Below, in pieces: positions 3,984-21,871 of a stretch of DNA of 64,000 bases. A model generated the notes under the pieces. That model did no database searches. It was not told the DNA's origin and saw only the letters and a list, made by a program, of their open reading frames with translations. Positions within the stretch are counted from its first letter, which is position 1; every line of letters starts with the position of its first letter. The stretch spans positions 108-64,107 of the forward strand of contig JAGORH010000017.1 in NCBI GenBank assembly GCA_018062915.1, in the 5' to 3' direction. A program made the translations under genes and the position numbers. Source of the DNA: Kofleriaceae bacterium (GTDB taxonomy: Bacteria > Myxococcota_A > Polyangia > Haliangiales > Haliangiaceae).

Positions 3984-6160
3984 GGGTTCAGGAACGCCTC
4001 GGTGGTCGAGTCGCCGACCTCGTGAGCGTCGGCCTCGTAGGGAATGGCGCGGTAGGCGAGGTAGTTGTTCTCGACGGTCTGGATCTGCTGGGTCAAGCGG
4101 TCGCGCGCTTCGCGTGCGTCGTTGACGGTCCCGGCGGTCAGGTTGCCGGCCAGCGCGATCCGCGCTTGCTGGGCGGCGGTGCGGCGGACGCCGAGCTCGG
4201 CGATCGCGGTCGAGACCGCCTGCGAGGTCGCGCCGTGGGCTGCGCCGTCGGCGCCGAAGGCCTGGTCCATCGTCTGGGCCTCGCCGGCGCGCGGATCCAT
4301 GGCGCCGAGGGGAGCCAACACCGCGGCCTGGGCGATCACCTGGGGGATGCCGGTGTCGGCGACGATCTGGTTGGCGTTCCGGCCCTGGCCCGCGAGGTAG
4401 CGGGCGCGCAGGAAGTGTTGCTCGGCGTGGCGCGACTCGTGCTGGGCGGTGTTGGCGAGCTCGGCGGCCTCGGCGTCAGTCGGGACACCGGTGGTCAGGC
4501 TGGCCTCGCGCTGGCGGTACTTCCACTCGCCTCGCGAGAACGACCCACGCGGCGTCATGGCCTCGACCGCGGTGTCGAGGTACTGCGGCACGCCGGCGGC
4601 CTGGAGCTCGTGGTTGGCCGCGTCGAAGATCGCGGCGCCGCGCTCGGGCACGGTCAGGTTGTTCCAGTTGGCCTGGAGCTGGCGCACCGCCGCGACCATG
4701 CGATCGATCGACGCGATCGCTCCCAGCCCGGCCAGATCGGGGATCGTGCCGTTGCGGCGCTCGACGTGACGGTTGCGGGCCGCCGCCGCCTGCTGCGGGT
4801 AGACCCGGGCGCGGATCACCTCCCACTCGCCGTCGGCGATCGCCTGGTCGAGCTCATTGAGGAGCTGCTGTTGCTGCTGCTGGGTCGGCGCGTTGCCGCG
4901 GTTGCAGCGCCGGAGCTCGAGGCCACCTCGGGCTCGCGGCGCCGCGGTGGCGTCGCGATCGCCGCCGTGGACCCGGGCCAGGATCGCGGCAGCGCCGGCG
5001 TCGGCATCGGTCTCCGCCAGAGCTTCGCCGGTGCGCTCGGCGGGCGAGCGCATGACCGCGGCGCCGGTCGCGCGCGCGTCGTCGACGCCGTCGTGCTCCG
5101 GGTGATCCTGCTGCGCGACGTGGGCCAGCTCGTGGGCGAACAGGGCGTCGCCCTCGACGGTGCCGGGCTGGTAGGCGCCGGCGGCGAAGGCGACGTGGCG
5201 ACCGACCGTCACGGCCAGGGCGCCTTCGCGCGCCGCGAGCTGGGCGGCCTCGGGCCCGGTGTGGACGGTCACGCCGCCGAGGGTCGCGCCCAGGGCGGCG
5301 CGCGCCGCATCGACCACCGCGCCGGTCGCGGCGACGCCGTCGCCTAGCATCGCGGTCGGGGAGGCCGCGGTGCGGGCTCGCTCGCGGGCCGCGGCGACGT
5401 AGGCCTCGGCGGTCGCGGCCGGCCCGAGCTGGCTGGCGAGCTGACGCTCGAGCTCGGCGGCAGAGCGGGTCTCGGCCCCCGCGAGCTGCGCCATCGCCGC
5501 GTTGCGGGCCTCGGCGCCGCGCTCCGGCGGCAGCGCCGCGAGCTCGGCCTCGACCGCGCCGCGCATCGCGGCGAGCAGCGCGCTGCGCGTCATCTGGCCC
5601 GGTCCGGGCGGGGCGCCGTCCTCGACGATTACCCCGCGCGGGCGCGCCCCGGCGACCGCCGCCGCCGCTACGTCGTCCGCCTCACGCTCGGCCGGGCTGT
5701 CGGCCGCGCCGACCTCGAGCTTCGCCATCGGCGCGGCGCTGGCGGCGCCCTGCTGCACGACGTGGGTCAGCTCGTGGGCCATGAGGCCGACGTCGCCCGC
5801 GGATTCGCCGGTGCCGAGGAAGACGTCGGCCCCGTAGGCGAAGGCGCGCGCGCCCATCGCGTCGGCCGACGCCCGCGACAGCTCGTCGGTGTGGACCCGG
5901 GTGCCGCCCAGATCGGCGCCGAGGTGAGACTCAGCGGTGGCGCGGACCGTGTCGGGGACCGGCGCGCCGGCACCCTTGCCGTCGACCGCCGCCTGGGCGA
6001 CGTCGCCGCGGGTCGGTGCGGCCGCGCCGCGACGCGCGAGCTGCGCGGTCAGGGTGCGCTTGCCGGCGGCGCTGCCGCGCTGGAGCTGGGCCGATGGCGC
6101 CGCTGGCCCACCGTCTCGCCGCGACCGAACGTCGTCCTTGCCGTCAGGTCCACCAGCCAT
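3980..6160 (-). CDS. tandem DUF4157 (zincin-like HExxH) domain protein with unknown C-terminal effector domain; putative toxin/effector
   Basis: Two DUF4157-type modules: 'RVHTDELSRASADAMGARAFAYGADVF...HELTHVVQQ' and a second '...HELAHVAQQ'. C-terminal ~400 aa is unique, with a Q-rich linker. True start is ATG at complement 6160; the long upstream SRSRSR extension is read-through of the hexamer repeat. No signal peptide. Confidence 0.75.
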   Translation of the reverse strand: MAGGPDGKDDVRSRRDGGPAAPSAQLQRGSAAGKRTLTAQLARRGAAAPTRGDVAQAAVDGKGAGAPVPDTVRATAESHLGADLGGTRVHTDELSRASADAMGARAFAYGADVFLGTGESAGDVGLMAHELTHVVQQGAASAAPMAKLEVGAADSPAEREADDVAAAAVAGARPRGVIVEDGAPPGPGQMTRSALLAAMRGAVEAELAALPPERGAEARNAAMAQLAGAETRSAAELERQLASQLGPAATAEAYVAAARERARTAASPTAMLGDGVAATGAVVDAARAALGATLGGVTVHTGPEAAQLAAREGALAVTVGRHVAFAAGAYQPGTVEGDALFAHELAHVAQQDHPEHDGVDDARATGAAVMRSPAERTGEALAETDADAGAAAILARVHGGDRDATAAPRARGGLELRRCNRGNAPTQQQQQQLLNELDQAIADGEWEVIRARVYPQQAAAARNRHVERRNGTIPDLAGLGAIASIDRMVAAVRQLQANWNNLTVPERGAAIFDAANHELQAAGVPQYLDTAVEAMTPRGSFSRGEWKYRQREASLTTGVPTDAEAAELANTAQHESRHAEQHFLRARYLAGQGRNANQIVADTGIPQVIAQAAVLAPLGAMDPRAGEAQTMDQAFGADGAAHGATSQAVSTAIAELGVRRTAAQQARIALAGNLTAGTVNDAREARDRLTQQIQTVENNYLAYRAIPYEADAHEVGDSTTEAFLNP

Positions 6161-6267: not shown

Positions 6268-6448
<181 letters not shown>

Positions 6449-6450
6449 AT

Positions 6451-7593
6451 TCAGGGCAGCGTCGCGAACCAATCCAGGCACAACGGCCCGAGGTTGGCGT
6501 TGTAGGACGCGCAGTGCGGCGCGTCGGGCACGTGCTCGATCGCGCAGTCGCGATCCGGCGCCGCGTCGAGGAGCGCGCACAGATCGGTGAAGGGCTGCGC
6601 CGGCACCACGTCGCGCTCGCAGCGGTTGGCCAGGTCGTCGGCCCAGCGCCCACCCTCGGTGACCAGCTTCCAGTGCGGGACGGCGAAGCTGGCGGCGTCG
6701 ACCCCGACCGCGAAGGCGGACCCGTCGGGGCCGCGGGTGACGATCGAGTCGAAGTCGACGCAGTCGCCCTCGCCGCAGTCGCCGGGGTAGGGCAACCACG
6801 CGTGGTCCGGATCGCACGCGCACTGACCGCCCTCGCTGCCGCCGCAGGCATGGGCTGCGGTCGCGGTCGCGCGGGTGTAGGCGCTCGCCACTCGTCGGTG
6901 GCGGCCGGCGCAGCTCGGTCCGGTGCCAGCGCCGACGAAGGCGTCCTGGGCGCGCACGTCGACCACGCCGTCGCTCATGCAGACGCCGTTGCGGCCGGTG
7001 CCCAGCCAGGCGGCGTCGACCTGGTAGCGCGCCGCCACTACCGGATAGCGGGTCGCGCCCATGCTGCAGCCGCCGTGGAGCAGGTTGGCGCCCGACCACA
7101 CGCCGAGGTCGCCGCCCGGTCGCAGCCGCGCCAACGCCGCGCCGACCACCCGCTGATCGCGCTCCGGCGCACCCAGCGAGGTCGGCAAGATCTCCCCGGG
7201 GTAGAGCGGCTGCGCGCACAGCATCACCGTGCGCGGGTAGGCCGCCAAGAGCGCCGTCGTCGCGTCGGCCAGCGCCGGCGTGTCGCAGTCGAAGGCCGAC
7301 CAGTACAGGAAGACGTCGTCGCACGGCGCCGCTGCCGTGCAGACGTCGCCGCGGTAGCGCACCCGGTACTGGCACGCGCCGCACCGCGGATCCGTCGCCG
7401 CCGGCCCCTCGCAGCGCGCCGGCCACGCCTGGCAGTCGTCGAGGAAGATCGATCCGGTATCGACGATCGCGGCGGCGTCGAGCGCGGCGCCGTCGATCGC
7501 GTCACCGATCGTATCACCGGCGTCGAGGGCCGCGCCGCCGCCACCGCAGGCCATCGTCAAGAGCGCGCCCAGCGCCAAGCCATGTCGGAGCAT
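6451..7593 (-). CDS. Cys-rich secreted lipoprotein, hypothetical
   Basis: MLRHGLALGALLTMACGG lipobox signal at internal Met. Many Cys. Plus-ORFs 6016..8109 and 6587..6790 rejected. Confidence 0.65.
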   Translation of the reverse strand: MLRHGLALGALLTMACGGGGAALDAGDTIGDAIDGAALDAAAIVDTGSIFLDDCQAWPARCEGPAATDPRCGACQYRVRYRGDVCTAAAPCDDVFLYWSAFDCDTPALADATTALLAAYPRTVMLCAQPLYPGEILPTSLGAPERDQRVVGAALARLRPGGDLGVWSGANLLHGGCSMGATRYPVVAARYQVDAAWLGTGRNGVCMSDGVVDVRAQDAFVGAGTGPSCAGRHRRVASAYTRATATAAHACGGSEGGQCACDPDHAWLPYPGDCGEGDCVDFDSIVTRGPDGSAFAVGVDAASFAVPHWKLVTEGGRWADDLANRCERDVVPAQPFTDLCALLDAAPDRDCAIEHVPDAPHCASYNANLGPLCLDWFATLP

Positions 7594-7646: not shown

Positions 7647-10600
7647 TCAGCCGACCTCGCGGCGGATGCCCCCGGCTGAAGTGCCAACGCGCCCGCGCCG
7701 TCGCAGCACCACAGCCAGGACGATCGCCGCGAGCCCGGTCAACGGCTCGCCACCGCCGCCGCTGCTACAGCAGCCGCTCGCGGGTGCGTCGCCGCCGTCG
7801 CCTTGGGCATCCATGCCGCCGGCCCCGCCGTCGATGCCACCGTCGCTGCTCGTCTCGATCTCACACGTCGCGCTGCACCCGTCGCCCGAAATCACGTCGC
7901 CGTCGTCGCAGGCCTCGACGCCGATCTGCGTCACCCCGTCACCGCACCGCGCCCGCAGGCACGCAGAGCGGCATTCGTCAGCGTCATCCTGGTCCCCATC
8001 GTCGCATTCCTCTCCAGCCTGCACGGCGCCGTCGCCACATCGTGCGAGTTGGCAGGTGTTGCGGCACGCGTCGGCGTCATCGGTGTTGGCATCGTCACAT
8101 TGTTCGTAGCCGGCCCGGACGTAACCGTCGCCGCACCGCGCCTCGGCGCAATCGACGCAGCCATCCGTGCTCACCAGGTTGCCGTCGTCGCAGCTCTCGA
8201 CCCCCTGGTAGGTCAGTCCATCGCCGCAGCGCGCCGGCTGGCAAATGGTCGTGCAGCCATCGGTCGCGATTGTGTTGCCGTCATCGCAGGTCTCGACTCC
8301 GGCCCAGATCTGACCGTCGCCACAGCGCGCGGTCATGCAGTTGCCGCGACATGCGTCCGTCTCGATGGCGTTGCCGTCATCGCACTGTTCCCCGAGCTGG
8401 ACGCGCGCATCACCGCACGTTCCAGGTACGCAGGTGTTGCTACACGCGTCGAGGTCGAAGCCGTTGCCATCGTCACATGGCTCAACCCCGACCTGGACGA
8501 AGCCGTCGCCACACCGCGCGTGGCGGCATGCGCCGACACAGGAGTCGTCGTCCTCGCTATTGCCGTCGTCGCACTGCTCGACCGTTGGGCGCAGGATCCC
8601 GTCGCCGCAGCGGGCGATCTGGCAGCTCGCGGTACAGGCGTCGCTGTCGATCGTGTTGCCATCGTCGCAGGCCTCTATCCCGGCTTGGATGTGGCCATCG
8701 CCACAGGTCGCGAGGCGACACTGCGCGCAGCCATCGCTGTCGATCGCATTGCCGTCGTCGCAGACCTCGCTCCCCTCGTGGACGACGCCATCGCCGCACC
8801 GCGCAACCTGGCAGGTGTCCGTGCAGGCGTCGGTGGCGATGGTGTTGCCGTCGTCGCATTGCTCGACCCCAGGCGTGACGAAGGTGTCGCCGCAGCCAGC
8901 CGGCTCGCAGGTGGTGAGACAACCATCGAGGTTGGACCGGTTCCCGTCGTCACATCGTTCGCCGGGGTCGACGACGCCGTTGCCGCATGGCAGCTCATCG
9001 CCGGTACACGTCTGGTCGCAGCGACCGGGCTCGCCGTTGCTCGTCCCGTCGTCGCACAGCTCGCCAGCATCGAGCTCCCCATCGCCGCAGTTCGCGGTGC
9101 GCGCGAACTCGTAGGCCCCGAGGTCGTAGCGCGGACCACCGCTACCGTCGCCATCGAGCGGACGGGGCCGCCCATCGAAGTCGACCTCGGGCGCATCACG
9201 CTCGGTGCCCTGGTCGATGCAGGGGCTCGTGGCGCCAAGTCGCGGGTTGTTGCTGGCCACATACTGCGGATCGAGCGCCAAGTTGTTGGCCAGGGTCACC
9301 GTGCCCGAGACGTTCACTGCGTTGCCCCACAGGTTCGAAAAGGTGAGCGATGCCGCGACGGTGCCGGAGCGACGGACTCCCGTCCCGCCGTGGCCAGTGA
9401 TGATCGTGTTCTGAATCGCCATCGTGCCGGCGCCGATCGCGTCCACACCTCGACTTCCGTTGTCGTGGAGCGTGCAGTTGGTGATCCGTAGGCTCGCCTC
9501 AGCCGCGGCAGCGTTGAACACGACGCCTGTCGTCGTGTTCTCGCGCAGCAGGCAGTTCACGAGGCGGGTCATGCCATGGCCGGTCACGTCAACCGCGGTG
9601 CCGTTGCGGGTAGCCACCAGGCCGTGGAACTCGACGTTGCCGAGGCTGGCCGCCCGCAGCCCGAGGTCGTTGTTCGTGACCGTGAGGTGGCGGAGTGGAG
9701 GTTGTGCGCCAAGCACCGTTACGCCGACCGCCGCGTTCGAGACCGTGAGGTGGGCGAGGTCGTGGGGGCCGGCGCTGAGGAACAACCCGGTCCAGCGTCC
9801 AAAGTCGTCGTTCCTTGCCAGTGTGATCGGTCGAAGCTCGTCGCCGTGCGCTATCAGACGCCCGCGCACGGCGATCTCGACACGCTGTGGTTCGCTGCCC
9901 GCGCCCATCGCGTCGGAGAATGCCATGCGCAGCGAGGCGCCCGGTTCGAGCGTCAGGGTGACACCGGGCGCGACGGTCAAGTCACCCGCTACGAGCTGGG
10001 CGCCGCTCGCCGCGCGCACGGTCGTGTCGGACCACAGGGTCCCGAGGAGGCCCGGCGTCGGCTCGCCGATGTAGGGCCGGCCACCCTGATCACCGCCACC
10101 TTGAGCGCCGAAGCGTGAAGGCGAGTTCGACGTCAGATGGAGGGTACTTGAGAGGAGTGGGTTGGCGCTGATGTTCGGCGGAGGGATCAGAGGCGGCTCA
10201 AGCGAGCCGGGAGGGCTCCAGATGTTGGAGTGAGTGACCTGAGACAGACTTACGCCTGTTAGGTTTGCCGAGACGCTGTTTGCGACGATCGAGTTGCTGA
10301 TGGCAACACTGTGGGTGCCGCCGACAACGATTCCATTCTGGTTTCGCACGATGGTCGTCTGGTCGACGCGCAACGTCCGCGGGCCGATCGGCTGGAAGGC
10401 AAGGCCGGTGTTCGCTTGTGACACCACAGAGTTCAGGAGCGTGAGGGACCCTCGCTGAATCACCCCGACGCCGGTCCCTCCACCTTGGATCGACACGCTG
10501 TCGAGGGTATGGTTGCCGCCTTCGATCTGTACGCCAACACCCGCGCCCGTGATCGCGACGTGCCGCACGGTAACCGGGGCACCGCCGAGGAGGACGAGCC

Positions 10601-10988
10601 CCTTGGAGGCGCGTTCGATGACGACCTGTTCGAGGTGGGCGGCGGTCGCGTCGGCATCGACGACGATCGCGAAACCAGGACCCACGTTGCCCGAGGTGGG
10701 CCGAAAGGTGACAGGGGACGCGCTGGTCCCCGTCGCGGCCAAGGTGCCTGCGACGCGCAGTTCGTAGTTCACCCCCAGTGGGGCCGATGCGAACTCGACG
10801 ATCGTTCCAGCTTCGATGCGCAACGTCGCGCCGGCCGCCACGGTGACCGAGCCTTGGAGGACGTACGGGTTTCCGGCGGGCGTCCAGGTCTCATCCGTGA
10901 TCGTGCCCGCCGGCACGATCGTCGCAGATGCGCTGCCGCGCAACACCATCAGCAGCCCGAGCACGACCCAAGCACATCGCTTCCACAT
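7647..10988 (-). CDS. large secreted right-handed beta-helix protein with ~15 Myxococcus cysteine-rich repeats and MYXO-CTERM sorting tail
   Basis: Signal peptide MWKRCAWVVLGLLMVLRGSASA. Parallel beta-helix-like N-terminal half. Repeated 'C(x)DDGN...D.C...C...ARCGDG' modules (TIGR02232-type). C-terminal GCCSSGGGGEPLTGLAAIVLAVVLRRRGR, i.e. GC motif + TM + Arg (MYXO-CTERM). Confidence 0.85.
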   Translation of the reverse strand: MWKRCAWVVLGLLMVLRGSASATIVPAGTITDETWTPAGNPYVLQGSVTVAAGATLRIEAGTIVEFASAPLGVNYELRVAGTLAATGTSASPVTFRPTSGNVGPGFAIVVDADATAAHLEQVVIERASKGLVLLGGAPVTVRHVAITGAGVGVQIEGGNHTLDSVSIQGGGTGVGVIQRGSLTLLNSVVSQANTGLAFQPIGPRTLRVDQTTIVRNQNGIVVGGTHSVAISNSIVANSVSANLTGVSLSQVTHSNIWSPPGSLEPPLIPPPNISANPLLSSTLHLTSNSPSRFGAQGGGDQGGRPYIGEPTPGLLGTLWSDTTVRAASGAQLVAGDLTVAPGVTLTLEPGASLRMAFSDAMGAGSEPQRVEIAVRGRLIAHGDELRPITLARNDDFGRWTGLFLSAGPHDLAHLTVSNAAVGVTVLGAQPPLRHLTVTNNDLGLRAASLGNVEFHGLVATRNGTAVDVTGHGMTRLVNCLLRENTTTGVVFNAAAAEASLRITNCTLHDNGSRGVDAIGAGTMAIQNTIITGHGGTGVRRSGTVAASLTFSNLWGNAVNVSGTVTLANNLALDPQYVASNNPRLGATSPCIDQGTERDAPEVDFDGRPRPLDGDGSGGPRYDLGAYEFARTANCGDGELDAGELCDDGTSNGEPGRCDQTCTGDELPCGNGVVDPGERCDDGNRSNLDGCLTTCEPAGCGDTFVTPGVEQCDDGNTIATDACTDTCQVARCGDGVVHEGSEVCDDGNAIDSDGCAQCRLATCGDGHIQAGIEACDDGNTIDSDACTASCQIARCGDGILRPTVEQCDDGNSEDDDSCVGACRHARCGDGFVQVGVEPCDDGNGFDLDACSNTCVPGTCGDARVQLGEQCDDGNAIETDACRGNCMTARCGDGQIWAGVETCDDGNTIATDGCTTICQPARCGDGLTYQGVESCDDGNLVSTDGCVDCAEARCGDGYVRAGYEQCDDANTDDADACRNTCQLARCGDGAVQAGEECDDGDQDDADECRSACLRARCGDGVTQIGVEACDDGDVISGDGCSATCEIETSSDGGIDGGAGGMDAQGDGGDAPASGCCSSGGGGEPLTGLAAIVLAVVLRRRGRVGTSAGGIRREVG

Positions 10989-11147
10989 CGCATCACTCCT
11001 TCGCTGCCGCCAACCCACGTGACGGCTCGGGTAGAGGATGCCTCCGCGGTAACGCCGTGTCTAGACCCGTGCTGGTCGCACCCACGGGGCGTCGCGTCAC
11101 CTGAACAGGGTGATGACCTCGACGCCCAGGTGTCCGCGCCTTAACCC

Positions 11148-12608
11148 CTAGCCAAGGTGCTCGATCAGCTTCTCGATCCGCGCGACCACCGCGTCGACCG
11201 CGCGGTCGGCGTCGACCTCGATCGCGCCGAGGCTTCGATAGCCGTCGAGTACGCGGCTTCGGAAGGCGTGGTCGCCGGCCAGTCGCTCCTCCTCGGTGGT
11301 CGCGGCGCCCCGGTCGGCAAGCCGGCCACGGCGAACGGGCTCTGCGAGGGTCAAGAGGACCAGCAGATCGGGGCGCGGGATCTCGGCGGGCCACGCGGCG
11401 ATCGGGCCGTCCTGCTCGGCCGCGGCGAACGCCAGCGTGGACGCCACGCTGCGATCCATCACCACCGCGCGCCCGGCGGCTCGGTGTCGCTCTGCGACCG
11501 CGGCGACCTCGCGATTCGCCGCCAGGTACCAGGCGCGGCGCTCGGCGGGCTCAGCCCGATCCGCCGCCGCTCGCTCGGCGGCGCTCGCCTTGTCCGGGTT
11601 GGTGAGCAGCGCTGCGTCCATGCGCTCGGCGAGCGCGCGCGCGACCGTCGACTTGCCACTGCCGTCGAGACCCTCGATCGCGATCAGCAGCGGAAGGTTC
11701 CCGGTCGCGACCTCGCCGGGCGCGTACTCGCCACCGCGATCCAGGAAGCGCGCCTGGTCGAAGCCGCCGACGTCGGACCACGCCGCCATCACCCCGACCT
11801 CCGGGATCGGGCGGCTGCGCACGTAGCGCCCATCGACCCGCTGATAGAAGCGGCCGAGGGGGTCGACCATCGCGTACGAGCCGTCCATCGCGTCGTTGTC
11901 CTCGGTGACGACCGCGACGCCCTCGGGCGCCCCGGCGCGGGCCCGGGTGACGTAGGCGGCGTACGCGTCCGGGGCGCAGACCAGCGCGGCGGCGTCGTCG
12001 TTCTCGCCCTCGACCAGGAGCATCTGGAACAGCTTGACCTTTTCGGGCCGCACGGCGCGGATCAGGTCACTCGGGTCCTCGTGGGCGTTGCGGTTGGTGA
12101 CGGTGATGTTGAGCTTGAGCCGAAGGCGCCGCGCCGGCGGGCGGAGCGCGTTCCAGCGGTGGACCTGGGCCGCGACCGCGCGCACCTGCGCGACGTGGCC
12201 GCGCGCCATCGAGGTCGCGCGCCGGCCGAGCTCGTGGGTGGTCGCCTCATCGATGCTGTCCACCGACAGCGCCAGCCAGCGGAGGTGAGGGCCGTGGTCG
12301 GCGAGCCAGGTCTCGTCGATGCGCGACGCGTTCGTCACGATCGAGGTCACGAGCCCGACCTCCGACGCGGCGCGTAGCAGCGTCGCCAGGTCGCGATGGA
12401 GCGTCGGCTCGCCGCCGGCGAAGGTCACCCGGCGGACGCCCTGGCCGTGGAGGTCCCGGAGGATCGCCACCAGGACCTCGGGAGCGAGCCGGGGCTGCTG
12501 GCGCTCCTGCTCGAAACGCGCGTAGCAGTACCCGCATTTCATGTTGCAGTGCGCGACCAGGTGGAGGTTGACGGTCGAGGGAAGGTACGTCGCAGAGCGA
12601 GTCGTCAT
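11148..12608 (-). CDS. prokaryotic viperin (radical SAM) fused to thymidylate-kinase-family (CMPK2-like) nucleotide kinase
   Basis: N-terminal: LHLVAHCNMKCGYCYA (CxxxCxxC), GGEPTLH, IVTNASRI, FQMLLVEGEND, each a close match to viperin CNYKCGFC / IVSNGSLI / FQCLLIEGENCG. C-terminal: IAIEGLDGSGKST P-loop, VVMDRSVASTLAF (DR motif) and RPDLLVLLTLAEPVRRGRLADRG lid, typical of the TMPK family. Start ATG 12608 with GGAG 9 nt upstream. Lower-GC promoter-like region 12610-12710. Confidence 0.88.
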   Translation of the reverse strand: MTTRSATYLPSTVNLHLVAHCNMKCGYCYARFEQERQQPRLAPEVLVAILRDLHGQGVRRVTFAGGEPTLHRDLATLLRAASEVGLVTSIVTNASRIDETWLADHGPHLRWLALSVDSIDEATTHELGRRATSMARGHVAQVRAVAAQVHRWNALRPPARRLRLKLNITVTNRNAHEDPSDLIRAVRPEKVKLFQMLLVEGENDDAAALVCAPDAYAAYVTRARAGAPEGVAVVTEDNDAMDGSYAMVDPLGRFYQRVDGRYVRSRPIPEVGVMAAWSDVGGFDQARFLDRGGEYAPGEVATGNLPLLIAIEGLDGSGKSTVARALAERMDAALLTNPDKASAAERAAADRAEPAERRAWYLAANREVAAVAERHRAAGRAVVMDRSVASTLAFAAAEQDGPIAAWPAEIPRPDLLVLLTLAEPVRRGRLADRGAATTEEERLAGDHAFRSRVLDGYRSLGAIEVDADRAVDAVVARIEKLIEHLG

Positions 12609-12709
12609 CGGGGGCTCCTTGCTGGGTTGCGCCCGAATCAGTCGCTGCCCCCCGTTTCGCTTCAGCCGGCCCGTCGATTTCTCGAAGATTTCTGCAAGCG
12701 TGCGATTTG

Positions 12710-14077
12710 TCAGTCGTTTTCGCAGCGAGCGCGGAGCTCTTTCAGCTCGCGGCGCAGGCGTCGATTCATGTTCCCGAACAGGTTGCGCGCCTCTCGTTCC
12801 GCCATGCCGAGGTCCTGGCCAATCTCCGCGTAGCTCATGCCGCGCCATCGCCGCGCCTCGACTTCGCGTTCGAGCGGTCGCATCCGGCATCGCGCCTCGG
12901 TCGCGAGCGCCAAGGTGCGCTGCTCCGCGTCTTCGTCGTCCCGCCAGGTACACGGATCCGCGGGCCGCTCGTCCAGATCACTGCACACGCTCATGCGGCT
13001 CCCGTGTCGGGCCAGGCGCTTGGCGTTGTTGCGCGCGACCTGCAGGAAGTACGCCTGTGGCGTGTCGACCGGTGGACGTCGATGGCAGGTCGCCACCAGC
13101 GCATCGGCGGCCGCGTCGTGACATTCATCGCCGCACCCGTAGGTGCGTTCGAGCGACCGCACGGTCGTGCGGAAGGGCTCCCCGGCCAGGTCTTCGAAGC
13201 ACCGCTGCTCGTCGCGTACCTCGGAACCAGGGAGCTCGGTGCACGCCGGCGCGGCGTCCTCGTCGCGGGCCGTTTCGGGCGCGACCTCCCCCGCGGCCAG
13301 ACACAACACGGTCGGCGCGGCGTCGAAGACGCCATCGGGGCCGTCGACCCGCGCCAGCTCGAGCTCGTCAGCCAGCGCCTCCACGGGTGGGCCCCACAGT
13401 CGACGTTCGTGGGCGACCAGCCCCGCCAATCCGAGCAGCGCGAACGCGGCGGTCGCAAACCCGGCGCGGTAGGTAGAGCGTCGGCCCCACGTCCGCGCCC
13501 GGCGGGCGAGGCCCCAGGTGCCGTGCCACACCAGCACGGCGCCGTAGAGCCCGAGGTAGGTCACCGCGGCCGAAACCAAGATCGTGGCCAGGGGGTACGG
13601 AAAGTAGGCCGACCGCGGGAGCGCGGCGGCGGTCGACAAGCCCGCGGAGACCGTCAGAGCGATGAGGGTCGCGGTCGCGTGGTCGGCGTCTTCCTCGAGC
13701 TCGGCATCGAACTCGGCCGGGCGAGTGAACAGCGCCGCGATCGCGAGCAGGCCGCCCAGGCCGACCCCGATCGCGGCGGCCACCGGCAAGGTCGTGGGCT
13801 CGAGCGCGCCCGCGTGGGTCAAGCCGAGCCCGGCCAAGGCGAGCCCGCCGCACACCACCGCGGCCCACACGACGATCAGGGCGGGCGCGCCCACGACCAC
13901 GACGAAGAGCGCCAAGGAGCCGTCGAGGGCCACGCGCATCGGCGCGGTCAATGGGTGCTCGGATGGCGCCGGAGTGGCGTCATCGGCTCGCACGATCGTC
14001 GTGTCTTGCGGTGCGACGACGTCCTCGGTCTGGGTGAGATCTTCGAGCGTCGTAGCCGGCCCCGTTGGCTCCGCCAT
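12710..14077 (-). CDS. polytopic membrane protein with C-terminal ECF-sigma-like (sigma70 region 2.4 + region 4 HTH) domain
   Basis: Residues ~45-230 form 5-6 hydrophobic helices. C-terminus has 'AYFLQVARNNAKRL' (ECF region 2-like) and 'RWRGMSYAEIGQDLGMAEREARNLFGNMNRRLRREL' (region 4 HTH). No stop between the modules, so fused or mis-resolved. Plus-ORF 12707..14734 rejected. Confidence 0.5.
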   Translation of the reverse strand: MAEPTGPATTLEDLTQTEDVVAPQDTTIVRADDATPAPSEHPLTAPMRVALDGSLALFVVVVGAPALIVVWAAVVCGGLALAGLGLTHAGALEPTTLPVAAAIGVGLGGLLAIAALFTRPAEFDAELEEDADHATATLIALTVSAGLSTAAALPRSAYFPYPLATILVSAAVTYLGLYGAVLVWHGTWGLARRARTWGRRSTYRAGFATAAFALLGLAGLVAHERRLWGPPVEALADELELARVDGPDGVFDAAPTVLCLAAGEVAPETARDEDAAPACTELPGSEVRDEQRCFEDLAGEPFRTTVRSLERTYGCGDECHDAAADALVATCHRRPPVDTPQAYFLQVARNNAKRLARHGSRMSVCSDLDERPADPCTWRDDEDAEQRTLALATEARCRMRPLEREVEARRWRGMSYAEIGQDLGMAEREARNLFGNMNRRLRRELKELRARCEND

Positions 14078-15917: not shown

Positions 15918-17540
15918 GTGCCCGCGGCGAAGCGCACCTGGACCCAGGCCTTCGGCCGGACGGGCGACCAGGGCAACGCGCTGACCGCGCCGCTGTCGCC
16001 GAGCAACACCTACGTCGCGTACCTGTCGCGCCTCGAGCCCCTCGACAGCGGCGACGTCACCGCGATGTTCGAGATGGTCACGCTCGAATGGGCGAGCAAC
16101 GCCGCCAATAGCGCGCAAGAGGTGATCGCGGCGGCGCCCGATGGACCGGCGACGATGTGGTCGATCGCCGCGGTCGCGCCGTCGACGTTCCAGGCGGCGC
16201 TGGGCGTGACCGACCCCGATCTGGTCGCCGAGGGCGTGTGGTTCCTCCTGACCTTCACGATGGTCTCGTCGCTGCTCGAGGATCCGGCCGGCGGCGAGCT
16301 GGCCGGGGATCTGACCGACGCGCTCTACCCGTTCGCGCCGACCTCCGCCAGCTACGGCACCTACGAGCTGACCCAGGGCCAGTGCCTGTTCGCTCCCGAC
16401 GTCCAGGACGACGGTACCGCGCGGCTGAGCGAGCCCGACCCGGCGTCCTTTCGCGCGTTCTTGACCCTGACCGACGCCGAGAAGAAGTTGTTGCGGCAGC
16501 TGCTCCAGGGGTACGGCGCGCTGGTCGCGGCGCTGGCCCAGCCCGGGACGATGCCGCCACCGCCGCCGCCGTTGCCGCCGCCGATCGGGCCGGGGCCGAC
16601 GGTGGTCGCGATCGGCGTGATGGACATCGGCGCCGGGAGCTGCAACCTCCTGTTCACCAAGAACAGCGCCGGCCAACTCGAGCCGCTGGTGTATCTCGAC
16701 GTCGGCCGCCCGTATAACGCGTTCAAGAACACCGAGCCCGGGAACCTCGACGCCGACCCGAAGAGGACCAACAGCGGACCGATCCTGCAGAACGCGTCTG
16801 GCACGTTGTCGGTGGTGTTGACCCACTGGGATCAGGACCACCTGCTGCTCGGGCTGACGCCCGGCCTGGCGACCTTGCCCTGGCTGGCGCCGACCCAGTC
16901 CTACGGGCCGGGCACGACCAAGCTGGTCGCCGGGCTCACGCGGATCACCCGGCTGCCCACCGGCTTCGGCTCGCGCGACTTCGGCAGCTACAAGCTCGTC
17001 GAGGTCTCCCTCGGGCGGCCGAAGAAGAAGGGCAAGGACCCCGAGTTTCAGAACAACTCGGGGCTGGCGATGCTGGTGCCGCTGTGGTTTCCCACCGACG
17101 AGCTGCAGCCGCACCAGTGCCTGCTCCCGGGCGACGCGTCGATCGGCAACCTCGGCGGGCCGCCGCTCAGCGACGTCACGGCCTACACCGCGGTCCACCA
17201 CGGCGCGAACACCTTCAAGGCGACGGAGAACCTGCCGACCCCGGTCGTGACCCCAGGGGTGGTCGCGTTCTCGTACGGGATCCGGACCTCGCCCAAGCCG
17301 ACCGCGAACAATCAGCACGGCTACAACCACCCGACCCAGGCGTCGATCGCCGCCAACCGAACCGCGGGATGGACGCGGCAGGTGGCGACCGCCGAGACCA
17401 AGGTGGTGAACGGCGCGATGCCCGAGCGCAATGGCGCGCGCGGCAACCTCCTCATCGGCCAGCCCCTCGACGTCGCGCCGGCCTACGCGACGACCGCGTT
17501 CGCCGTCTACGTCACCAAGCTCACCTCGGGGCAGCCGTGA
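15918..17540 (+). CDS. giant-protein operon gene 1: hypothetical protein with poly-Pro linker and possible MBL/ComEC-like fold
   Basis: GTG start after an AT-richer promoter-like stretch (15840-15917). No signal peptide. PPPPPPLPPPIGPGP linker. 'VLTHWDQDH' and 'AVHHGANT' resemble MBL-fold (ComEC/Rec2-type) metal-binding motifs. Stop overlaps the next gene's start (GTGA). Confidence 0.6.
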   Translation: MPAAKRTWTQAFGRTGDQGNALTAPLSPSNTYVAYLSRLEPLDSGDVTAMFEMVTLEWASNAANSAQEVIAAAPDGPATMWSIAAVAPSTFQAALGVTDPDLVAEGVWFLLTFTMVSSLLEDPAGGELAGDLTDALYPFAPTSASYGTYELTQGQCLFAPDVQDDGTARLSEPDPASFRAFLTLTDAEKKLLRQLLQGYGALVAALAQPGTMPPPPPPLPPPIGPGPTVVAIGVMDIGAGSCNLLFTKNSAGQLEPLVYLDVGRPYNAFKNTEPGNLDADPKRTNSGPILQNASGTLSVVLTHWDQDHLLLGLTPGLATLPWLAPTQSYGPGTTKLVAGLTRITRLPTGFGSRDFGSYKLVEVSLGRPKKKGKDPEFQNNSGLAMLVPLWFPTDELQPHQCLLPGDASIGNLGGPPLSDVTAYTAVHHGANTFKATENLPTPVVTPGVVAFSYGIRTSPKPTANNQHGYNHPTQASIAANRTAGWTRQVATAETKVVNGAMPERNGARGNLLIGQPLDVAPAYATTAFAVYVTKLTSGQP

Positions 17541-20500
17541 CCGCGGGCCCGCCGACGACCGCGGTCGCCAGCCCGATCTCCGATCTCGCCGGCGTGACCG
17601 CGTGGCTCGAGACCGTCGCGGTCGGCGACGTCGTCGCGGTCGGGTCGAGTCAGTTCGCGGCGCCGCTGGTGGCGGCGGTGTTCGCGCTCTTGCCCGATGG
17701 CGATCCGTCGACGGTGACGGTCACCGCGGTCGACGCCGCCGCCGCGACCTTGCGCGGCACCGGCGACCTGGTCGGCGTCGACGGTTCGACCGCGTGCTTC
17801 ACCTGGAGCACGGCGGGTTCGGCGCTGGCCTTGACCCTCGAGATCGCGCTGCCGCCGACGACCGAGTGGGACCTGGTCGAGGCGCTCAAGGTGACGTTCC
17901 ACGATCTGGTGGGGACCTTCACGCCCAACCCGACCGCCAACACCGTCGGCCTGCGGTTCAAGGCCAAGCTCAAGGTCGGCGACCTGAAGGCGTTCCCGGT
18001 CGAGTTCGTGGTGCCCAGCCTCGACACCGACTGGACCCTCCTGGCCGAGCCCGGGTCCCTGGGCGCCCTCGACGGCGACGCGCTCACCGCGCTGGCCGGG
18101 GGCCACGACCCGCTGGCGATCCTCGGCGGCCAGTTCGACCTGGCCGATCTGTCGCTGACCCGGGTCGAGATGGCGCTGCGGCCGCCGACCGCGCTCACGA
18201 TGGTCGGGCTCGGGCTCGCCTACGCGCCGCCGTCGCCGTGGACCTTGTTCGGCGGGCGGTTCCAGATCGATGAGGTCAGCTTCGACGTCCGGGTCTTCCA
18301 GCCGTTCACGACGCCGACGCTGCAGGCCGAGCTGACGGCGACGATGAGCCTGCCCGGGATCGACCTGACCTTCGACGTCGGCGGCGTGTACCCAGATCAG
18401 CTCCTGTTCGCCGGGCTGCCGCCGGGCCAGCAGCTCGACCTGACCGCGGCCATGACCGCGCTGGGCGCGACCCTGCCGGCCGGGTTTCCGACGATCTCGC
18501 TCGACACGCTCTTGTTCAAGTTCTGGGTCGTGGCCGAGAAGGTGACCTTCGAGATCGGCATCGCGCAGCCGTTCGCGATCATCGGCGAGCTCGAGCTCGA
18601 CGCGTTCTTCTTCGATCTCCAGGTCGACTGGAGCGGCGCGACGCCGTCGGTGGTCGGGCTCCTCACCACCACCGTAGGGTTCGGCACGACCCGCCTGACC
18701 CTGGCTGGCAGCTATGACGCCGGCGGCTTGAGCCTGTCCGGTGGGTTGACCGACGTGGATCTGGGCGCGCTGGTCACGGCGCTGGCGGCGAAGTTCACCT
18801 GGACCGCGCCGGCGGCGCTGACCAACCTCGAGCTCGCGTCCTTGACCGTCGCGCTCACCACCGGCGCGGCGGCCAGCTTCGACTTCACCCTGGTCGGCTC
18901 GACGACGGTGGCCGGGGTCGCGGCCTCGCTGTCGGTCGTCGTCCACCAGGCCTTCGACGCTCAGGCCAACCGCTGGGACGGCACCGCGACCGGCACGTTG
19001 ACCGTCGGCGCGCTGACCTTCACCGTGACCTTCGATGACGGGCCTGGCGTCGAGCGCCTTACGGCGACCTACGTCGGCGATGACCTCGGCCTCGACGACG
19101 TGATCGCGGCCTTTGGCCTCGCCGCGCTACCGCCGATCCCGCCGGCGCTCGACCTGGCGCTGACCTCGGCGGGGTTAGTCTACGACTTCACCACCGGCGA
19201 GCTCGGGCTGTTCGCGCAGTCGGCCCGCTACGGCGCGCTGGCCCTGGCCTCGCCGATGATCGCCGGCGCGCGGCAGTACCTGGTCGTTCTCGCCACCGAC
19301 GTCACGGTGGCGCTGGCCGACCTGCCGCTCATCGGCGCCGACCTGGCGCGGATCGAGGCCATCACCGTCGACGACCTGGTGGTGACGGCGACCTCGCTGC
19401 CCAGCATCCCGCCCACCGCGGTGGCGCCGTTCGCGGCGGTCCTGGCGCTCCTGCCGGCGGGGACGCCGGCGGTGCCGGCGGCCGGCGTGCCGGCGCCGCT
19501 CGTGGTCCAGGCCACCGTGCACTTCGGCACGCAGGCCCTGCCCCTGGCGGTCAGCCTGGGTGCGCCGCTGGCGCCGTCGAGTACCGGTGCGCGCGCGCTG
19601 GCGACGGCCGGGGCCAGCGCCGGGCCGGTGACCGCGGCCACCAGCGCCGACGGCGCGACCTGGTACACCGTCGAGCAGGCCTTCGGTCCGGTGACCCTCG
19701 GGCAGATCGGCGTCGCCTATCAGTCGACCACCCAGAGCGTCTGGTTCGAGCTCGACGCCAGCCTGGCGCTCGGCCCGCTGGCGGTCGCGCTGACCGGCCT
19801 GGGCATCGGCTCGCCCCTCGAGAGCTTCGCGCCGCAGTTCACGCTCGGCGGGTTGACCGTGGACTATCAGACCGGGCCGCTGACGATCGCCGGCACGCTG
19901 GTCAACCTGCAGCCGCCGGGCGCGCCCGGGCTGGCCTTCGCGGGCGGGCTGACGCTCGGCGCCGACGAGCTGACGCTGACGGCCTTTGGCTACTACGGCG
20001 ACGGCGCCGGGTTCCCGTCGCTGTTCGTGTTCGCCGACCTGGCCTACGACCTGGGCGGGCCGCCGGCGCTGTTCGTCACCGGGCTCGCCCTCGGGTTCGG
20101 CTACAACAGCGCGCTGGCGGCGCCGACCCTGGCCCAGGTCCCGACCTTTCCCCTCCTCGCGGCGCTCGACGGCGCATCGCCGCTCGGGCCGACCACGCCG
20201 CCGCTCCAGGCCCTCGACGCGCTCCTGACCGCGCCCCCCGGCGGCGGCCCGGCGTGGGTCACGGCGACGCCGGGCGCGCTGTGGCTGGCCGCCGGCGTGA
20301 CCTTCACCAGCTTCGGCCTGGTGGCGTCGCGGGTGATGCTGGTGGTCGAGCTCGGCGCCGCGCTGGCGATCGAGGTGCTCGGGACCTCGACCGCGCAGTT
20401 CCCGCAGCCCGGCGATGGCGACGTCCGCTACGCCTTCGTCGAGCTCGAACTCCTTGCCCAGCTCGACCCCGCGGCCGGCGTGTTCTCGGTCCAGGCCCAG

Positions 20501-21871
20501 CTCGCGCCGTCGTCGTTCCTCCTCGACGCGGCGTGTGTCCTGACCGGTGGGTTCGCGTTCTTCGTCTGGTCGGGCCCGAGCCCTCACGCCGGGGACTTCG
20601 TCTTGACCCTGGGCGGCTACACCGCCGGCTTCGTCCCGCCCAGCTACTACCCGACGCCGCCGCCGGTCGGCTTCCACTGGACCGTCGACGACACGATCAC
20701 GCTCAGCGGCGGGGCGTACCTGGCGATCACGCCGGCGGTGTTCATGGCCGGCGGGCGCCTCGACGCTACCTATCAGTCGCAGTCGGGCGCGACCCGGGCC
20801 TGGTTCGACGCCGCGGTCGACGTCGTCTTGCGGTGGAAGCCGTTCTGGGTCGAGGCCGATCTCGGCATCACCGTCGGCGCTTCGCATCGCCTGAACCTGG
20901 CGGTCACGACGACCACGATCACCGTCGAGCTGGGCTGTCAGCTCACGGTGTGGGGCCCGCCGACCGGCGGCACCGTCGAGCTCGACTGGTGGGTCGTGAA
21001 GTTCACGATCGCGTTTGGCACGCCGCGCCCGACGACGCCGGCCATCGGCGGCTGGGACGATCTGCTGGCGCTCCTGCCGAGCGCCGCGGGCGCCGCGGGC
21101 GCCGCGCCGACGCCCTTGACCGTGACGCCAGTGGCGGGGCTCCTCAACCCGACCACCGCGCCGTCGACGACCGCCGACGCCACCGCGACCGCCTCCGCCG
21201 CGCCGTGGTTCGCCAGCGCCAGCCAGTTCGCGTTCGCGACCGCGAGCGCGATCCCGGCCACGACCGCCGCGGTCGGCGCGACCCAGCTCACCGGCCCGGC
21301 GAGCTTCGACGTGTTCCCGCTCGGCTGGACCGCGGTCACCGCCAGCCACCAGGTCACGATCGTCGGCGAGGCCGGCGACGCGTCGGGCGCGTTCACCGTG
21401 GCGCCGTCGATGGCCGCGGTGCCGGTGGCGCTGTGGGGCGCGCCCGCGGTCGACGCCGACGGTCGGCCTCTGGTGCCGGGCAGCGGCGACCAGCTCGTGC
21501 CCGGGCAGCTCGTCGGCCTGGTGATCACGGCGCGCCCGCCGGTCCTCGGCGCCTCGGTCGGCGCGATCGCGGTCGCGAGTCAGCTCGCGACCGAGCCGCT
21601 CGACGACGCCGGCGCGATCCAGCCGCTGTCGGCGACCGCCCCGCCGAGCGGCGACGTCGCGGTGGCCGACCCGACCCTGCTCGCCACCATGGCGGATCCC
21701 GACGTCGGGATCGCGTCGGTCGCGGCGCAAGACGCGCGGCGGGCCAGCCTGGCCGCGTTGGCGAGCCTCGGCTACGCGCCGCTCGCCGCCAGCGATCCGA
21801 TGACGCGCTTCGCGGCGCACCTCGACTGCGCCTTCGTCACGGCTCCGCTGTGGGTCCCGGGTTCGCCATGA
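17537..21871 (+). CDS. giant-protein operon gene 2: ~1444 aa low-complexity (A/T/G/L/V-rich) protein, unknown function
   Basis: In-frame GTG overlapping the upstream stop (GTGA). No signal peptide. Very low charged-residue content and long beta-rich segments. Stop overlaps the next start (ATGA). Reverse ORFs 17507..18946 and 19175..21913 rejected. Confidence 0.7.
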   Translation: MTAGPPTTAVASPISDLAGVTAWLETVAVGDVVAVGSSQFAAPLVAAVFALLPDGDPSTVTVTAVDAAAATLRGTGDLVGVDGSTACFTWSTAGSALALTLEIALPPTTEWDLVEALKVTFHDLVGTFTPNPTANTVGLRFKAKLKVGDLKAFPVEFVVPSLDTDWTLLAEPGSLGALDGDALTALAGGHDPLAILGGQFDLADLSLTRVEMALRPPTALTMVGLGLAYAPPSPWTLFGGRFQIDEVSFDVRVFQPFTTPTLQAELTATMSLPGIDLTFDVGGVYPDQLLFAGLPPGQQLDLTAAMTALGATLPAGFPTISLDTLLFKFWVVAEKVTFEIGIAQPFAIIGELELDAFFFDLQVDWSGATPSVVGLLTTTVGFGTTRLTLAGSYDAGGLSLSGGLTDVDLGALVTALAAKFTWTAPAALTNLELASLTVALTTGAAASFDFTLVGSTTVAGVAASLSVVVHQAFDAQANRWDGTATGTLTVGALTFTVTFDDGPGVERLTATYVGDDLGLDDVIAAFGLAALPPIPPALDLALTSAGLVYDFTTGELGLFAQSARYGALALASPMIAGARQYLVVLATDVTVALADLPLIGADLARIEAITVDDLVVTATSLPSIPPTAVAPFAAVLALLPAGTPAVPAAGVPAPLVVQATVHFGTQALPLAVSLGAPLAPSSTGARALATAGASAGPVTAATSADGATWYTVEQAFGPVTLGQIGVAYQSTTQSVWFELDASLALGPLAVALTGLGIGSPLESFAPQFTLGGLTVDYQTGPLTIAGTLVNLQPPGAPGLAFAGGLTLGADELTLTAFGYYGDGAGFPSLFVFADLAYDLGGPPALFVTGLALGFGYNSALAAPTLAQVPTFPLLAALDGASPLGPTTPPLQALDALLTAPPGGGPAWVTATPGALWLAAGVTFTSFGLVASRVMLVVELGAALAIEVLGTSTAQFPQPGDGDVRYAFVELELLAQLDPAAGVFSVQAQLAPSSFLLDAACVLTGGFAFFVWSGPSPHAGDFVLTLGGYTAGFVPPSYYPTPPPVGFHWTVDDTITLSGGAYLAITPAVFMAGGRLDATYQSQSGATRAWFDAAVDVVLRWKPFWVEADLGITVGASHRLNLAVTTTTITVELGCQLTVWGPPTGGTVELDWWVVKFTIAFGTPRPTTPAIGGWDDLLALLPSAAGAAGAAPTPLTVTPVAGLLNPTTAPSTTADATATASAAPWFASASQFAFATASAIPATTAAVGATQLTGPASFDVFPLGWTAVTASHQVTIVGEAGDASGAFTVAPSMAAVPVALWGAPAVDADGRPLVPGSGDQLVPGQLVGLVITARPPVLGASVGAIAVASQLATEPLDDAGAIQPLSATAPPSGDVAVADPTLLATMADPDVGIASVAAQDARRASLAALASLGYAPLAASDPMTRFAAHLDCAFVTAPLWVPGSP

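Follow-up and report, generated by a model that had tools for sequence, protein, structure and literature searches.

A viperin–CMPK2-like kinase fusion in a Kofleriaceae bacterium and its conserved upstream sigma-factor-like partner: a putative inducible cassette

Does a bacterial gene that fuses a viperin to a nucleotide kinase work by itself, or does something accompany it and switch it on? The question is raised by a 64,000-nucleotide stretch of contig JAGORH010000017.1 (assembly GCA_018062915.1, positions 108 to 64,107 of the forward strand) from a Kofleriaceae bacterium, which we refer to in its full length as the window. Its minus strand carries a single open reading frame (ORF) in which a viperin-type radical S-adenosylmethionine (radical-SAM) half is followed by a nucleoside monophosphate (NMP) kinase half of the thymidylate-kinase family (Table 1). 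A preliminary description of the window, made from its sequence, had presented this protein as a self-contained factory of antiviral nucleotide analogues within a defence island. We find instead that the fusion shares its locus with a conserved upstream gene for a membrane-anchored protein resembling extracytoplasmic function (ECF) sigma factors, and with a conserved bipartite motif in the spacer between the two genes. We consider it rather likely that the bifunctional viperin-kinase is the effector of a two-gene, sigma-driven inducible cassette.

Both enzyme halves are read from one frame that starts at an ATG (12608-12606, minus strand). The longest open frame reaches 12953 and there overlaps the 3' end of the upstream gene, whose stop codon occupies 12712-12710; between that stop and the fusion ATG lies a non-coding spacer of 101 nt (12609-12709). 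The preliminary description had placed the gene at 11148-12710, of which the lower end holds, but the upper end is the last base of the upstream gene's stop codon. The six motifs that it quoted (CNMKCGYC, IVTNASRI, FQMLLVEGEND, IEGLDGSGKST, VVMDRSV and RPDLLVLLTL...RRGRLADRG) are all found in the minus-strand translation. At third codon positions the GC content of the viperin half (0.94) and of the kinase half (0.88) resembles that of neighbouring genes (0.81-0.96), which indicates that the fusion ORF is coding and not compositionally foreign.

Pfam Radical_SAM matches residues 20-132 of the fusion at 67.5 bits, and the NCBIfam viperin equivalog NF038283 (viperin_w_prok) covers residues 12-292 over model positions 3-280 of 281 at 240.6 bits, against a cut-off of 180; the prokaryotic viperin (pVip) models of PADLOC score the protein at 202-228 bits (best 227.9). 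Its best relatives in the PDB are mouse viperin (E 6e-33), then cnidarian and fungal viperin-like enzymes, in alignments that span residues 9-296, and the viperin half is 31% identical to vertebrate viperin. The C-terminal extension is aligned as well, FLDRGGEYA in the fusion against FLKRGGKYV in mouse viperin, with R291 and Y295 invariant in the family. Foldseek placed the N-terminal domain on mouse viperin bound to cytidine triphosphate (CTP; 6q2p) with a template-modelling (TM) score of 0.86-0.87 and a root-mean-square deviation (rmsd) of 1.8 Å, compared with TM 0.56-0.59 for MoaA and PqqE. The cluster cysteines C21, C25 and C28 and the SAM-binding GGEP (G65-G66-E67-P68) are invariant in 21 family members. 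Mouse viperin residues N77, H79, K120, K220, N222, R245, K247, S301, Y302 and R347, which we take to be the contacts to the triphosphate and ribose of the nucleoside triphosphate (NTP) in 6Q2P, align in that order with N14, H16, R60, K165, N167, K190, K192, S244, Y245 and R291 of the fusion, each of which is invariant, near-invariant or K/R-swapped in the family (mouse numbering is the chain index of the HMMER alignment plus 44, verified at C84, C88 and C91).

That the N-terminal half is of MoaA/PqqE type, or that the fusion arose from an assembly or frameshift error, has a virtually negligible chance of being true. Generic radical-SAM models do match the first 130-200 residues, but at scores from 56 (PqqE) to 62 bits (MoaA) against cut-offs of 284-381, whereas the viperin model is matched over its full length. 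Scores, alignment and fold thus rule out a non-viperin radical-SAM family lacking the C-terminal extension, and the viperin-type assignment made earlier stands. The architecture recurs in about 95 protein clusters, and the same fusion protein is encoded by identical genes in four independent assemblies (L001 and L088-L090 among the loci that we fetched), so that the fusion is no assembly artefact.

In the C-terminal half, PF02223 (Thymidylate_kin) matches residues 311-478 over its entire length (model positions 1-185 of 185) at 65.4 bits against a cut-off of 27. The P-loop residues E312, G313, D315, G318 and K319, the DR motif (D385, R386) and the lid arginines R426, R429 and R433 are invariant in the family, and Foldseek aligned the domain with human thymidylate kinase at TM 0.66-0.70. 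The equivalog of the housekeeping deoxythymidine monophosphate (dTMP) kinase, TIGR00041, reaches 53.5 bits, below its cut-off of 83.25, and solved thymidylate kinases score just 22-34 bits against this half. BLASTP, by comparison, aligned it end to end with the kinase domain of human CMPK2 (P0207; 33% identity, 70.5 bits, E 5e-20) and with a scallop CMPK2-like protein (36% identity, 102 bits, E 4e-31), the common motifs being xNPP/KSPP, RRAWY/RRAFY, VxDR and WPxxxxxPDL. The human query matched the database protein P0207 at 100%, together with dozens of proteins named 'UMP-CMP kinase 2, mitochondrial', so the comparison sequences are genuine. Among PADLOC models the kinase half prefers PDC-M51B, its best match, to VakA (101.8 vs 35.1 bits), the same preference that human CMPK2 shows (82.7 vs 53.4). 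Judged by these comparisons, the kinase half is CMPK2-like rather than a housekeeping dTMP kinase, as the preliminary description had proposed, and a single polypeptide with a viperin half and a half of the thymidylate-kinase family is borne out, far beyond chance, by the Pfam, NCBIfam and PADLOC scans, and by the structure model. The protein almost certainly joins a catalytically competent viperin to a CMPK2-type NMP kinase. AlphaFold2, run with 21 family members, gave a model with a mean predicted local confidence (pLDDT) of 93.4 and a predicted TM-score (pTM) of 0.89, the latter suggesting that the two domains would be held in a fixed arrangement; Foldseek found no two-domain match to this model in the PDB.

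Among 5.8 billion clustered proteins, the roughly 95 clusters with the Radical_SAM plus Thymidylate_kin architecture are 460-560 aa long and 42-99% identical, and those named by their source are called 'viperin family antiviral radical SAM protein' and come from metagenome-assembled genomes (MAGs) of Myxococcales, Myxococcota or Planctomycetota. The full fusion occurs at just three loci (L007-L009) among 185,579 GTDB species representatives; the metagenome scan gave no close fusion relatives among the matches listed, and the scan of viral contigs gave no fusion, returning only two stand-alone viperins and phage kinases. The sequence has nonetheless been recorded before. Shomar et al. (2023, bioRxiv 10.1101/2023.09.13.557418) list GCA_018057825_07192, from Haliangiaceae UBA2376 sp018057825, both as a detected viperin (Supplementary Table 2) and as a viperin-neighbouring kinase labelled 'CMPK2-like' (Supplementary Table 5), and the fusion sequence (MTTRSATYLPSTVNLHLVAHCNMKCGYCY...VASTLAFAAAEQ) is identical to it over the approximately 400 residues compared. 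The same study marks 'CMPK2 and viperin fusion' on its CMPK2 tree (Supplementary Fig. 10), and reports a kinase within three genes of 12% of bacterial viperins, mostly CMPK2-related, as well as 18 eukaryotic viperins fused to kinases. There GCA_018057825_07192 is an untested table entry whose domain order is not discussed, and the main text makes no mention of a sigma factor or other regulator. Given its presence in those tables and the existence of a viperin-kinase fusion model in PADLOC, the fusion was already known: it is correct but catalogued, and its novelty had been overrated in the preliminary description.

Comparison of domain orders indicates that viperin-kinase fusion arose more than once. 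In P0082 and P0086 (518-532 aa) a CMPK2-type kinase, 54-57% identical to that of the fusion, is N-terminal and a different viperin C-terminal; L012 (a Competibacteraceae MAG) has the viperin first and a VakA-type kinase second in one protein, and L020 (Chryseobacterium formosus) has a viperin and a VakA-type kinase as separate adjacent genes. The idea that orthologous islands might carry the kinase as a separate gene therefore holds for the VakA type (L020) but not for the CMPK2-like type, as no kinase of the fusion's type lay within 6 kb at any of about 40 stand-alone viperin loci.

What does accompany the fusion is the gene directly upstream, encoding a protein of 455 aa (Table 1). A profile of its C-terminal 165 residues matched Mycobacterium tuberculosis SigL in the PDB (E 3.2e-9) across both sigma2 and sigma4 (profile positions 26-160, chain positions 36-172 of 177), and SigE and RpoE matched too. 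Pfam Sigma70_r4 is found in seven of eight members of the partner family, the protein is named 'sigma24 family' by JGI, and nearly all of the top 30 Foldseek matches to the AlphaFold2 model (pLDDT 85.2) are ECF sigma factors, the sigma4 part aligning at TM 0.82 and rmsd 1.7 Å. The family conserves six to eight cysteines, of which C293 and C331 occur in all 31 members and C365, C376, C397 and C452 in 26-28 of the 31; they could possibly serve metal binding, an Fe-S cluster or redox sensing, or form disulfides if the domain is periplasmic. The modelled N-terminus consists of helices at residues 45-89, 97-117, 133-152, 161-199 and 202-224, and Foldseek gave no convincing structural match for this membrane region. 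According to the ECF classification paper, N-terminal extensions of ECF sigma factors are rare and short, and transmembrane extensions are C-terminal only (ECF263); the arrangement of an N-terminal polytopic membrane region and an ECF sigma domain appears undescribed there.

The partner recurs upstream of different effectors in other Myxococcota loci. In L001-L005 a gene without a Pfam match lies about 100 bp upstream of the fusion on the same strand, its product 29-45% identical to the 455-aa partner, and tblastn and HMM searches across all fetched loci located the partner directly upstream of the fusion in five of nine fusion lineages (the window with L001 and L088-90; L002-4; L005; L008; L009), of stand-alone viperins in six lineages (L014, L016, L018, L019, L038 and L091/92, the L091 viperin scoring 283 bits on NF038283), of a gene for a B12-binding radical-SAM enzyme of PDC-M51A type at L087 and L093, and, in L094, of an ORF of 65 aa with Mrr and HNH genes in its flanks. 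Flanking genes vary by lineage (CAP/ThsB-TIR/CHAT, a sigma54 activator, GNAT with DUF1295, GrpE, GIY-YIG), which argues that partner and effector move as a unit. The family is very small: an exhaustive HMMER scan of 1.84 billion representative proteins found 84 relatives (E <= 1e-3), of which about 45 are full length (a word-indexed search with the partner profile, which the scan replaced, gave only four proteins), and all nine representatives with inspected context are arranged in the same way upstream of an effector. Profile and fold thus agree with the earlier identification of an ECF-sigma-like membrane protein, but this protein is a conserved partner and not an incidental island neighbour, and with a conserved upstream gene and a spacer motif accompanying it in many lineages, the fusion is not self-contained. 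Viperin was also seen with a dedicated regulator of another kind: in L012 (5115-7380) and L020 (5108-7425), a gene resembling a REC-LytTR response regulator lies directly upstream of the viperin and its VakA-type kinase.

The spacer from the partner stop to the effector start contains a bipartite motif, AAATCGAC-N7-8-(C)TTACACGAAAC, which aligns in 10 independent spacers whatever the effector, the partner proteins of these loci being just 21-48% identical, and which stands approximately 45-70 nt ahead of the effector start codon. The full motif has a single match in the window (0.02 expected). In loosened form it has 29 matches in about 1 Mb of fetched loci, compared with about five in shuffled sequence. 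At seven independent partner loci it falls in the spacer between partner and effector; other unique matches number about 12, roughly twice the shuffle mean. The spacing of the half-sites would be compatible with the -35/-10 geometry of ECF promoters, and a consensus scan found neither a sigma-70 promoter nor a relevant terminator. No Rfam family matches the spacer, whose RNA folding stability is not in excess (z = 0.23), and this makes a DNA-level element likelier than an RNA one, and a riboswitch or leader reading was dropped on these grounds. A looser match at 10341-10366 on the minus strand (TCGACCAGACGACCATCGTGCGAAAC), within a downstream beta-helix gene, is probably due to chance, at about five per Mb in shuffled sequence.

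From these domain identities, conserved catalytic residues, recurrent synteny and the conserved motif we infer a mechanism with regard to enzyme products, sigma-dependent induction and antiviral effect. The membrane-anchored, Cys-rich ECF-type sigma factor would be activated by a signal such as envelope or redox disturbance, possibly phage infection, and would then direct RNA polymerase to the spacer motif and so switch on the viperin-kinase. The CMPK2-type kinase would convert NMP to the diphosphate, which cellular nucleoside diphosphate kinase would convert to NTP, raising the local supply of pyrimidine nucleotides; the N-terminal viperin would dehydrate NTP to its 3'-deoxy-3',4'-didehydro (ddh) form, a chain terminator of polymerases, with the 10-residue linker holding the two domains in their fixed arrangement. 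In bacteria, the cassette would then parallel the vertebrate RSAD2-CMPK2 pair, whose two genes are induced together. The steps differ in how firmly we would hold them. The fusion probably yields a ddh-pyrimidine triphosphate, its kinase half adding to the supply, and transcription from the spacer motif by the upstream sigma factor is slightly favoured by the evidence, but that phage infection is the activating signal seems doubtful.

Several observations weigh against this proposal. In the scheme of pocket signatures that we used, Cys314 and Lys319 (mouse numbering) in the beta-8 loop denote CTP, Arg denotes uridine triphosphate (UTP) and Asn promiscuity. The loop of the fusion, FYQRVDGRY, places R257 at the Cys314 position and Y262 at the Lys319 position and lies outside all three main pocket types, so that it gives no substrate call; CTP or UTP is the probable but uncertain substrate of the fusion viperin. 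More distant family members have an Asn in this loop (FFSN, FFGN), and Y262 loosely resembles the rare 'ASP/Tyr' pocket variants linked to CTP use by Shomar et al. (2023, bioRxiv 10.1101/2023.09.13.557418), but the Asp of the fusion loop is offset by two residues. The partner at this locus, taken alone, scores 18 bits against a Pfam sigma cut-off of 25.7, below threshold. With six helices, the positive-inside rule (charged loops 118-134 and 185-203) predicts a periplasmic sigma domain, and a cytoplasmic one requires that the helix at 204-223 does not span the membrane. Window and locus-wide scans found no copy of the motif upstream of the sigma gene itself. Four fusion lineages (L007, L095, L096 and L097) are without the partner, so the sigma factor is not obligatory. 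Finally, none of seven neighbouring genes of the fusion has a PADLOC match, for which reason the term 'defence island' was dropped for this window.

Some of these points would also fit a constitutive, stand-alone gene of pVip type, the sigma-like gene being a mere neighbour or regulating something else. In the 2021 work of Bernheim and colleagues, classical pVips reportedly act as single genes when expressed in E. coli. The assays of Shomar et al. (bioRxiv 10.1101/2023.09.13.557418) likewise have them acting singly in that host, the partner is missing from the four lineages just named and the function of the motif is putative. Yet in no fewer than 14 independent loci, which have three types of effector and otherwise unrelated flanks, the partner stands upstream of an effector and shares its strand, the spacer motif is conserved, and the very small family (84 relatives) keeps this arrangement in every one of the nine contexts inspected. 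We therefore regard a stand-alone gene as unlikely and continue with the sigma-driven cassette.

A second radical-SAM enzyme bears on how far such a cassette might extend. At L087 (2949-4495) a sigma factor of the partner family is followed by the B12-binding radical-SAM gene of PADLOC PDC-M51A (448 bits), and an ORF overlapping that gene begins VKGRLVVFEGLDGVGKTT... and has a CMPK2-like P-loop, VFEGLDGVGKTT. Taken with the PDC-M51B match of the fusion's kinase half, this gene order suggests that the CMPK2-type kinase and the sigma cassette serve a second radical-SAM enzyme; our literature search found no paper naming PDC-M51. The broadest version of the idea is that partner and motif form a portable one-component switch for nucleotide-analogue radical-SAM enzymes in Myxococcota (viperin, the viperin-CMPK2 fusion and PDC-M51A+B), triggered by infection or by envelope or redox damage, and on this tentative proposal we are close to evenly divided, leaning slightly to doubt.

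The same loci bear on what the kinase does. It might re-phosphorylate the product, taking ddhNMP or ddhNDP towards ddhNTP, or be a nucleotide-sensing regulatory domain of the viperin. The CMPK2-type kinase is paired with viperin and with PDC-M51A (L087) and is found at either end of viperin (P0082, P0086), which points to a generic nucleotide-handling role, and the high pTM of the model may imply an intimate interface. On the other side, all catalytic kinase motifs are invariant, making a purely regulatory role unlikely, and the model for CMPK2 in the literature is substrate supply (bioRxiv 10.1101/2023.09.13.557418). We hold product phosphorylation or regulation to be quite unlikely, although the data fit phosphorylation of substrate and of product alike; the supply of substrate is the role we retain in the proposed mechanism.

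The surroundings of the cassette differ between this window and orthologous loci. Here the fusion's neighbours are a GNAT protein, a DUF1295 protein and a secreted beta-helix/DUF4215 protein. The defence-island reading of the preliminary description is weak on a further count: the DUF4157/eCIS_core gene on which it drew lies some 5 kb off, and orthologous loci in other lineages lack it. Genes near orthologous cassettes include ThsB-TIR, CHAT, caspase, Mrr, HNH, GIY-YIG, BrxE, PIN, integrase and PD-(D/E)xK types. In the 61%-identical orthologous cassette of L002 (5435-9500) and L003 (8017-8481), the next gene downstream of the viperin-kinase encodes a ThsB-type TIR protein; after it come a CHAT protein and an ECF sigma factor, together reminiscent of DdvA/DdvS, and a caspase-like peptidase. 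Secondary metabolites are made in abundance by myxobacteria, and with no recognised defence gene in its flanks here, the module might instead be one that is not antiviral, its modified nucleotide serving secondary metabolism, predation or signalling. Against this, the antiviral viperin equivalog model is matched above its curated cut-off, orthologous cassettes adjoin the genes listed above, and no biosynthetic cluster genes are linked, so that we find a non-antiviral role very improbable.

Several other features of the window lie around the cassette. The 1123-aa secreted protein (7647-11018, minus strand), with beta-helix/NosD repeats and 12 Cys-rich DUF4215 repeats (CGDG...CDDGN), is encoded 129 bp downstream of the fusion on the same strand and adjoins the cassette only in contigs of the same species. 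Beyond it on that side is the eCIS_core (formerly DUF4157) gene at about 3980-6160 (minus strand), and at about 6280-6460 a plus-strand frame reads as a long (T/A)E dipeptide repeat, pointing to a short tandem repeat in the DNA, located between minus-strand genes or at their edge. On the other side are very large proteins at 16718-21871 and 23748-28871 (both plus strand), whose counterparts in L088 and L089 carry DUF6603, and a strain-variable gene at 15918-17540 encoding 540 aa here, 541 aa in L089 and 786 aa in L088. None of those examined gave a PADLOC match.

Table 1. Features of the viperin-kinase cassette, in window coordinates
Feature	Position	Strand	Basis
Fusion CDS (coding sequence, stop included), 486 aa	11148..12608	-	ORF listing, start region, codon-position GC, domain scans
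Shine-Dalgarno AAGGAG	12620-12615	-	Read directly; 6 nt before fusion ATG
Viperin domain, residues 9-296, C-terminal extension ...FLDRGGEY included	11721..12584	-	NF038283, mouse viperin 6q2p alignment, Foldseek
Radical-SAM cluster motif C21-x3-C25-x2-C28 (CNMKCGYC)	12525..12548	-	Sequence; Cys invariant in 21 family members
Interdomain linker, ~10 residues (APGEVATGNL)	11691..11720	-	Family alignment
CMPK2-like NMP kinase domain, residues 307-483	11160..11690	-	PF02223, PADLOC PDC-M51B, BLASTP to CMPK2
Kinase P-loop EGLDGSGKST (E312-T321)	11646..11675	-	Family alignment
Bipartite promoter-like motif GAAATCGAC-N13-GCGAAAC, reads GAAATCGACGGGCCGGCTGAAGCGAAAC	12654..12681	-	Window scan, spacer alignment, locus-wide scan
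Upstream partner, 455 aa, membrane-anchored Cys-rich ECF-sigma-like	12710..14077	-	ORF; orthologues upstream in many loci
ECF sigma-like domain (sigma2 + sigma4), residues ~291-455	12713..13207	-	PDB profile, Sigma70_r4, Foldseek, Cys counts
Hydrophobic region, five to six predicted membrane helices, residues ~43-223	13409..13951	-	Hydropathy; AlphaFold2 helices

The fusion itself adds little, being a further catalogued case of a viperin-CMPK2 partnership that has already been argued to be an immune module shared by bacteria and animals. The parts worth following up are the sigma-plus-motif cassette and its tie to PDC-M51; we found no description in the literature of a sigma-plus-motif context for a viperin-kinase. 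If a dedicated sigma factor does drive the viperin, some bacterial viperins would be inducible and not constitutive, and the activating signal could be found with a reporter on a defined promoter. From the shared cassette and kinase, PDC-M51A also emerges as a second radical-SAM enzyme with a possible action on nucleotides, a concrete hypothesis by which this candidate system could be tested, and the proposal, if true, would supply a bacterial analogue of interferon-induced RSAD2-CMPK2 co-expression and tie PDC-M51 to viperin-like chemistry.

Set beside known systems, the cassette comes closest in its enzymes to the vertebrate RSAD2/CMPK2 pair and the eukaryotic viperin-CMPK2 fusions, with which it shares the two enzyme families and the proposed logic of substrate supply. 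It differs in being one polypeptide with the viperin first and without N-terminal amphipathic or mitochondrial-targeting extensions, in its proposed induction through a sigma factor and not interferon, and in a nucleobase pocket without Cys314 and Lys319. The 'pVip-kinase' fusion of PADLOC (PDLC02905) and VakA-type kinases likewise link viperin, covalently or operonically, to a P-loop nucleotide kinase, but that model places a VakA-type kinase (positions 1-174) before the viperin (181-465), whereas the window fusion has the reverse order and a CMPK2-like kinase; it matches PDLC02905 in one stretch only (residues 9-296 on model positions 181-459 of 474), leaving the kinase part unmatched, and it is the kinases of L012 and L020 that match that part. 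PDC-M51 (A, a B12-binding radical-SAM enzyme; B, a kinase) has in common with the fusion cassette the type of kinase and, in L087, the sigma partner, but its radical-SAM enzyme is not a viperin and the system is a candidate one. For the regulatory side, the nearest likeness is in the same phylum, where the DdvS/DdvA pair of ECF sigma and transmembrane anti-sigma factors controls a CBASS-CRISPR island in Myxococcus xanthus (PMC11506125). An ECF sigma factor, membrane-linked control and dedicated promoters for antiviral genes are common to both, as a working principle only: in the cassette described here the sigma and membrane domains are in one polypeptide, of which the membrane part is N-terminal, a separate anti-sigma factor and a TPR-CHAT sensor are absent, and the regulon of the partner is apparently a single adjacent gene.

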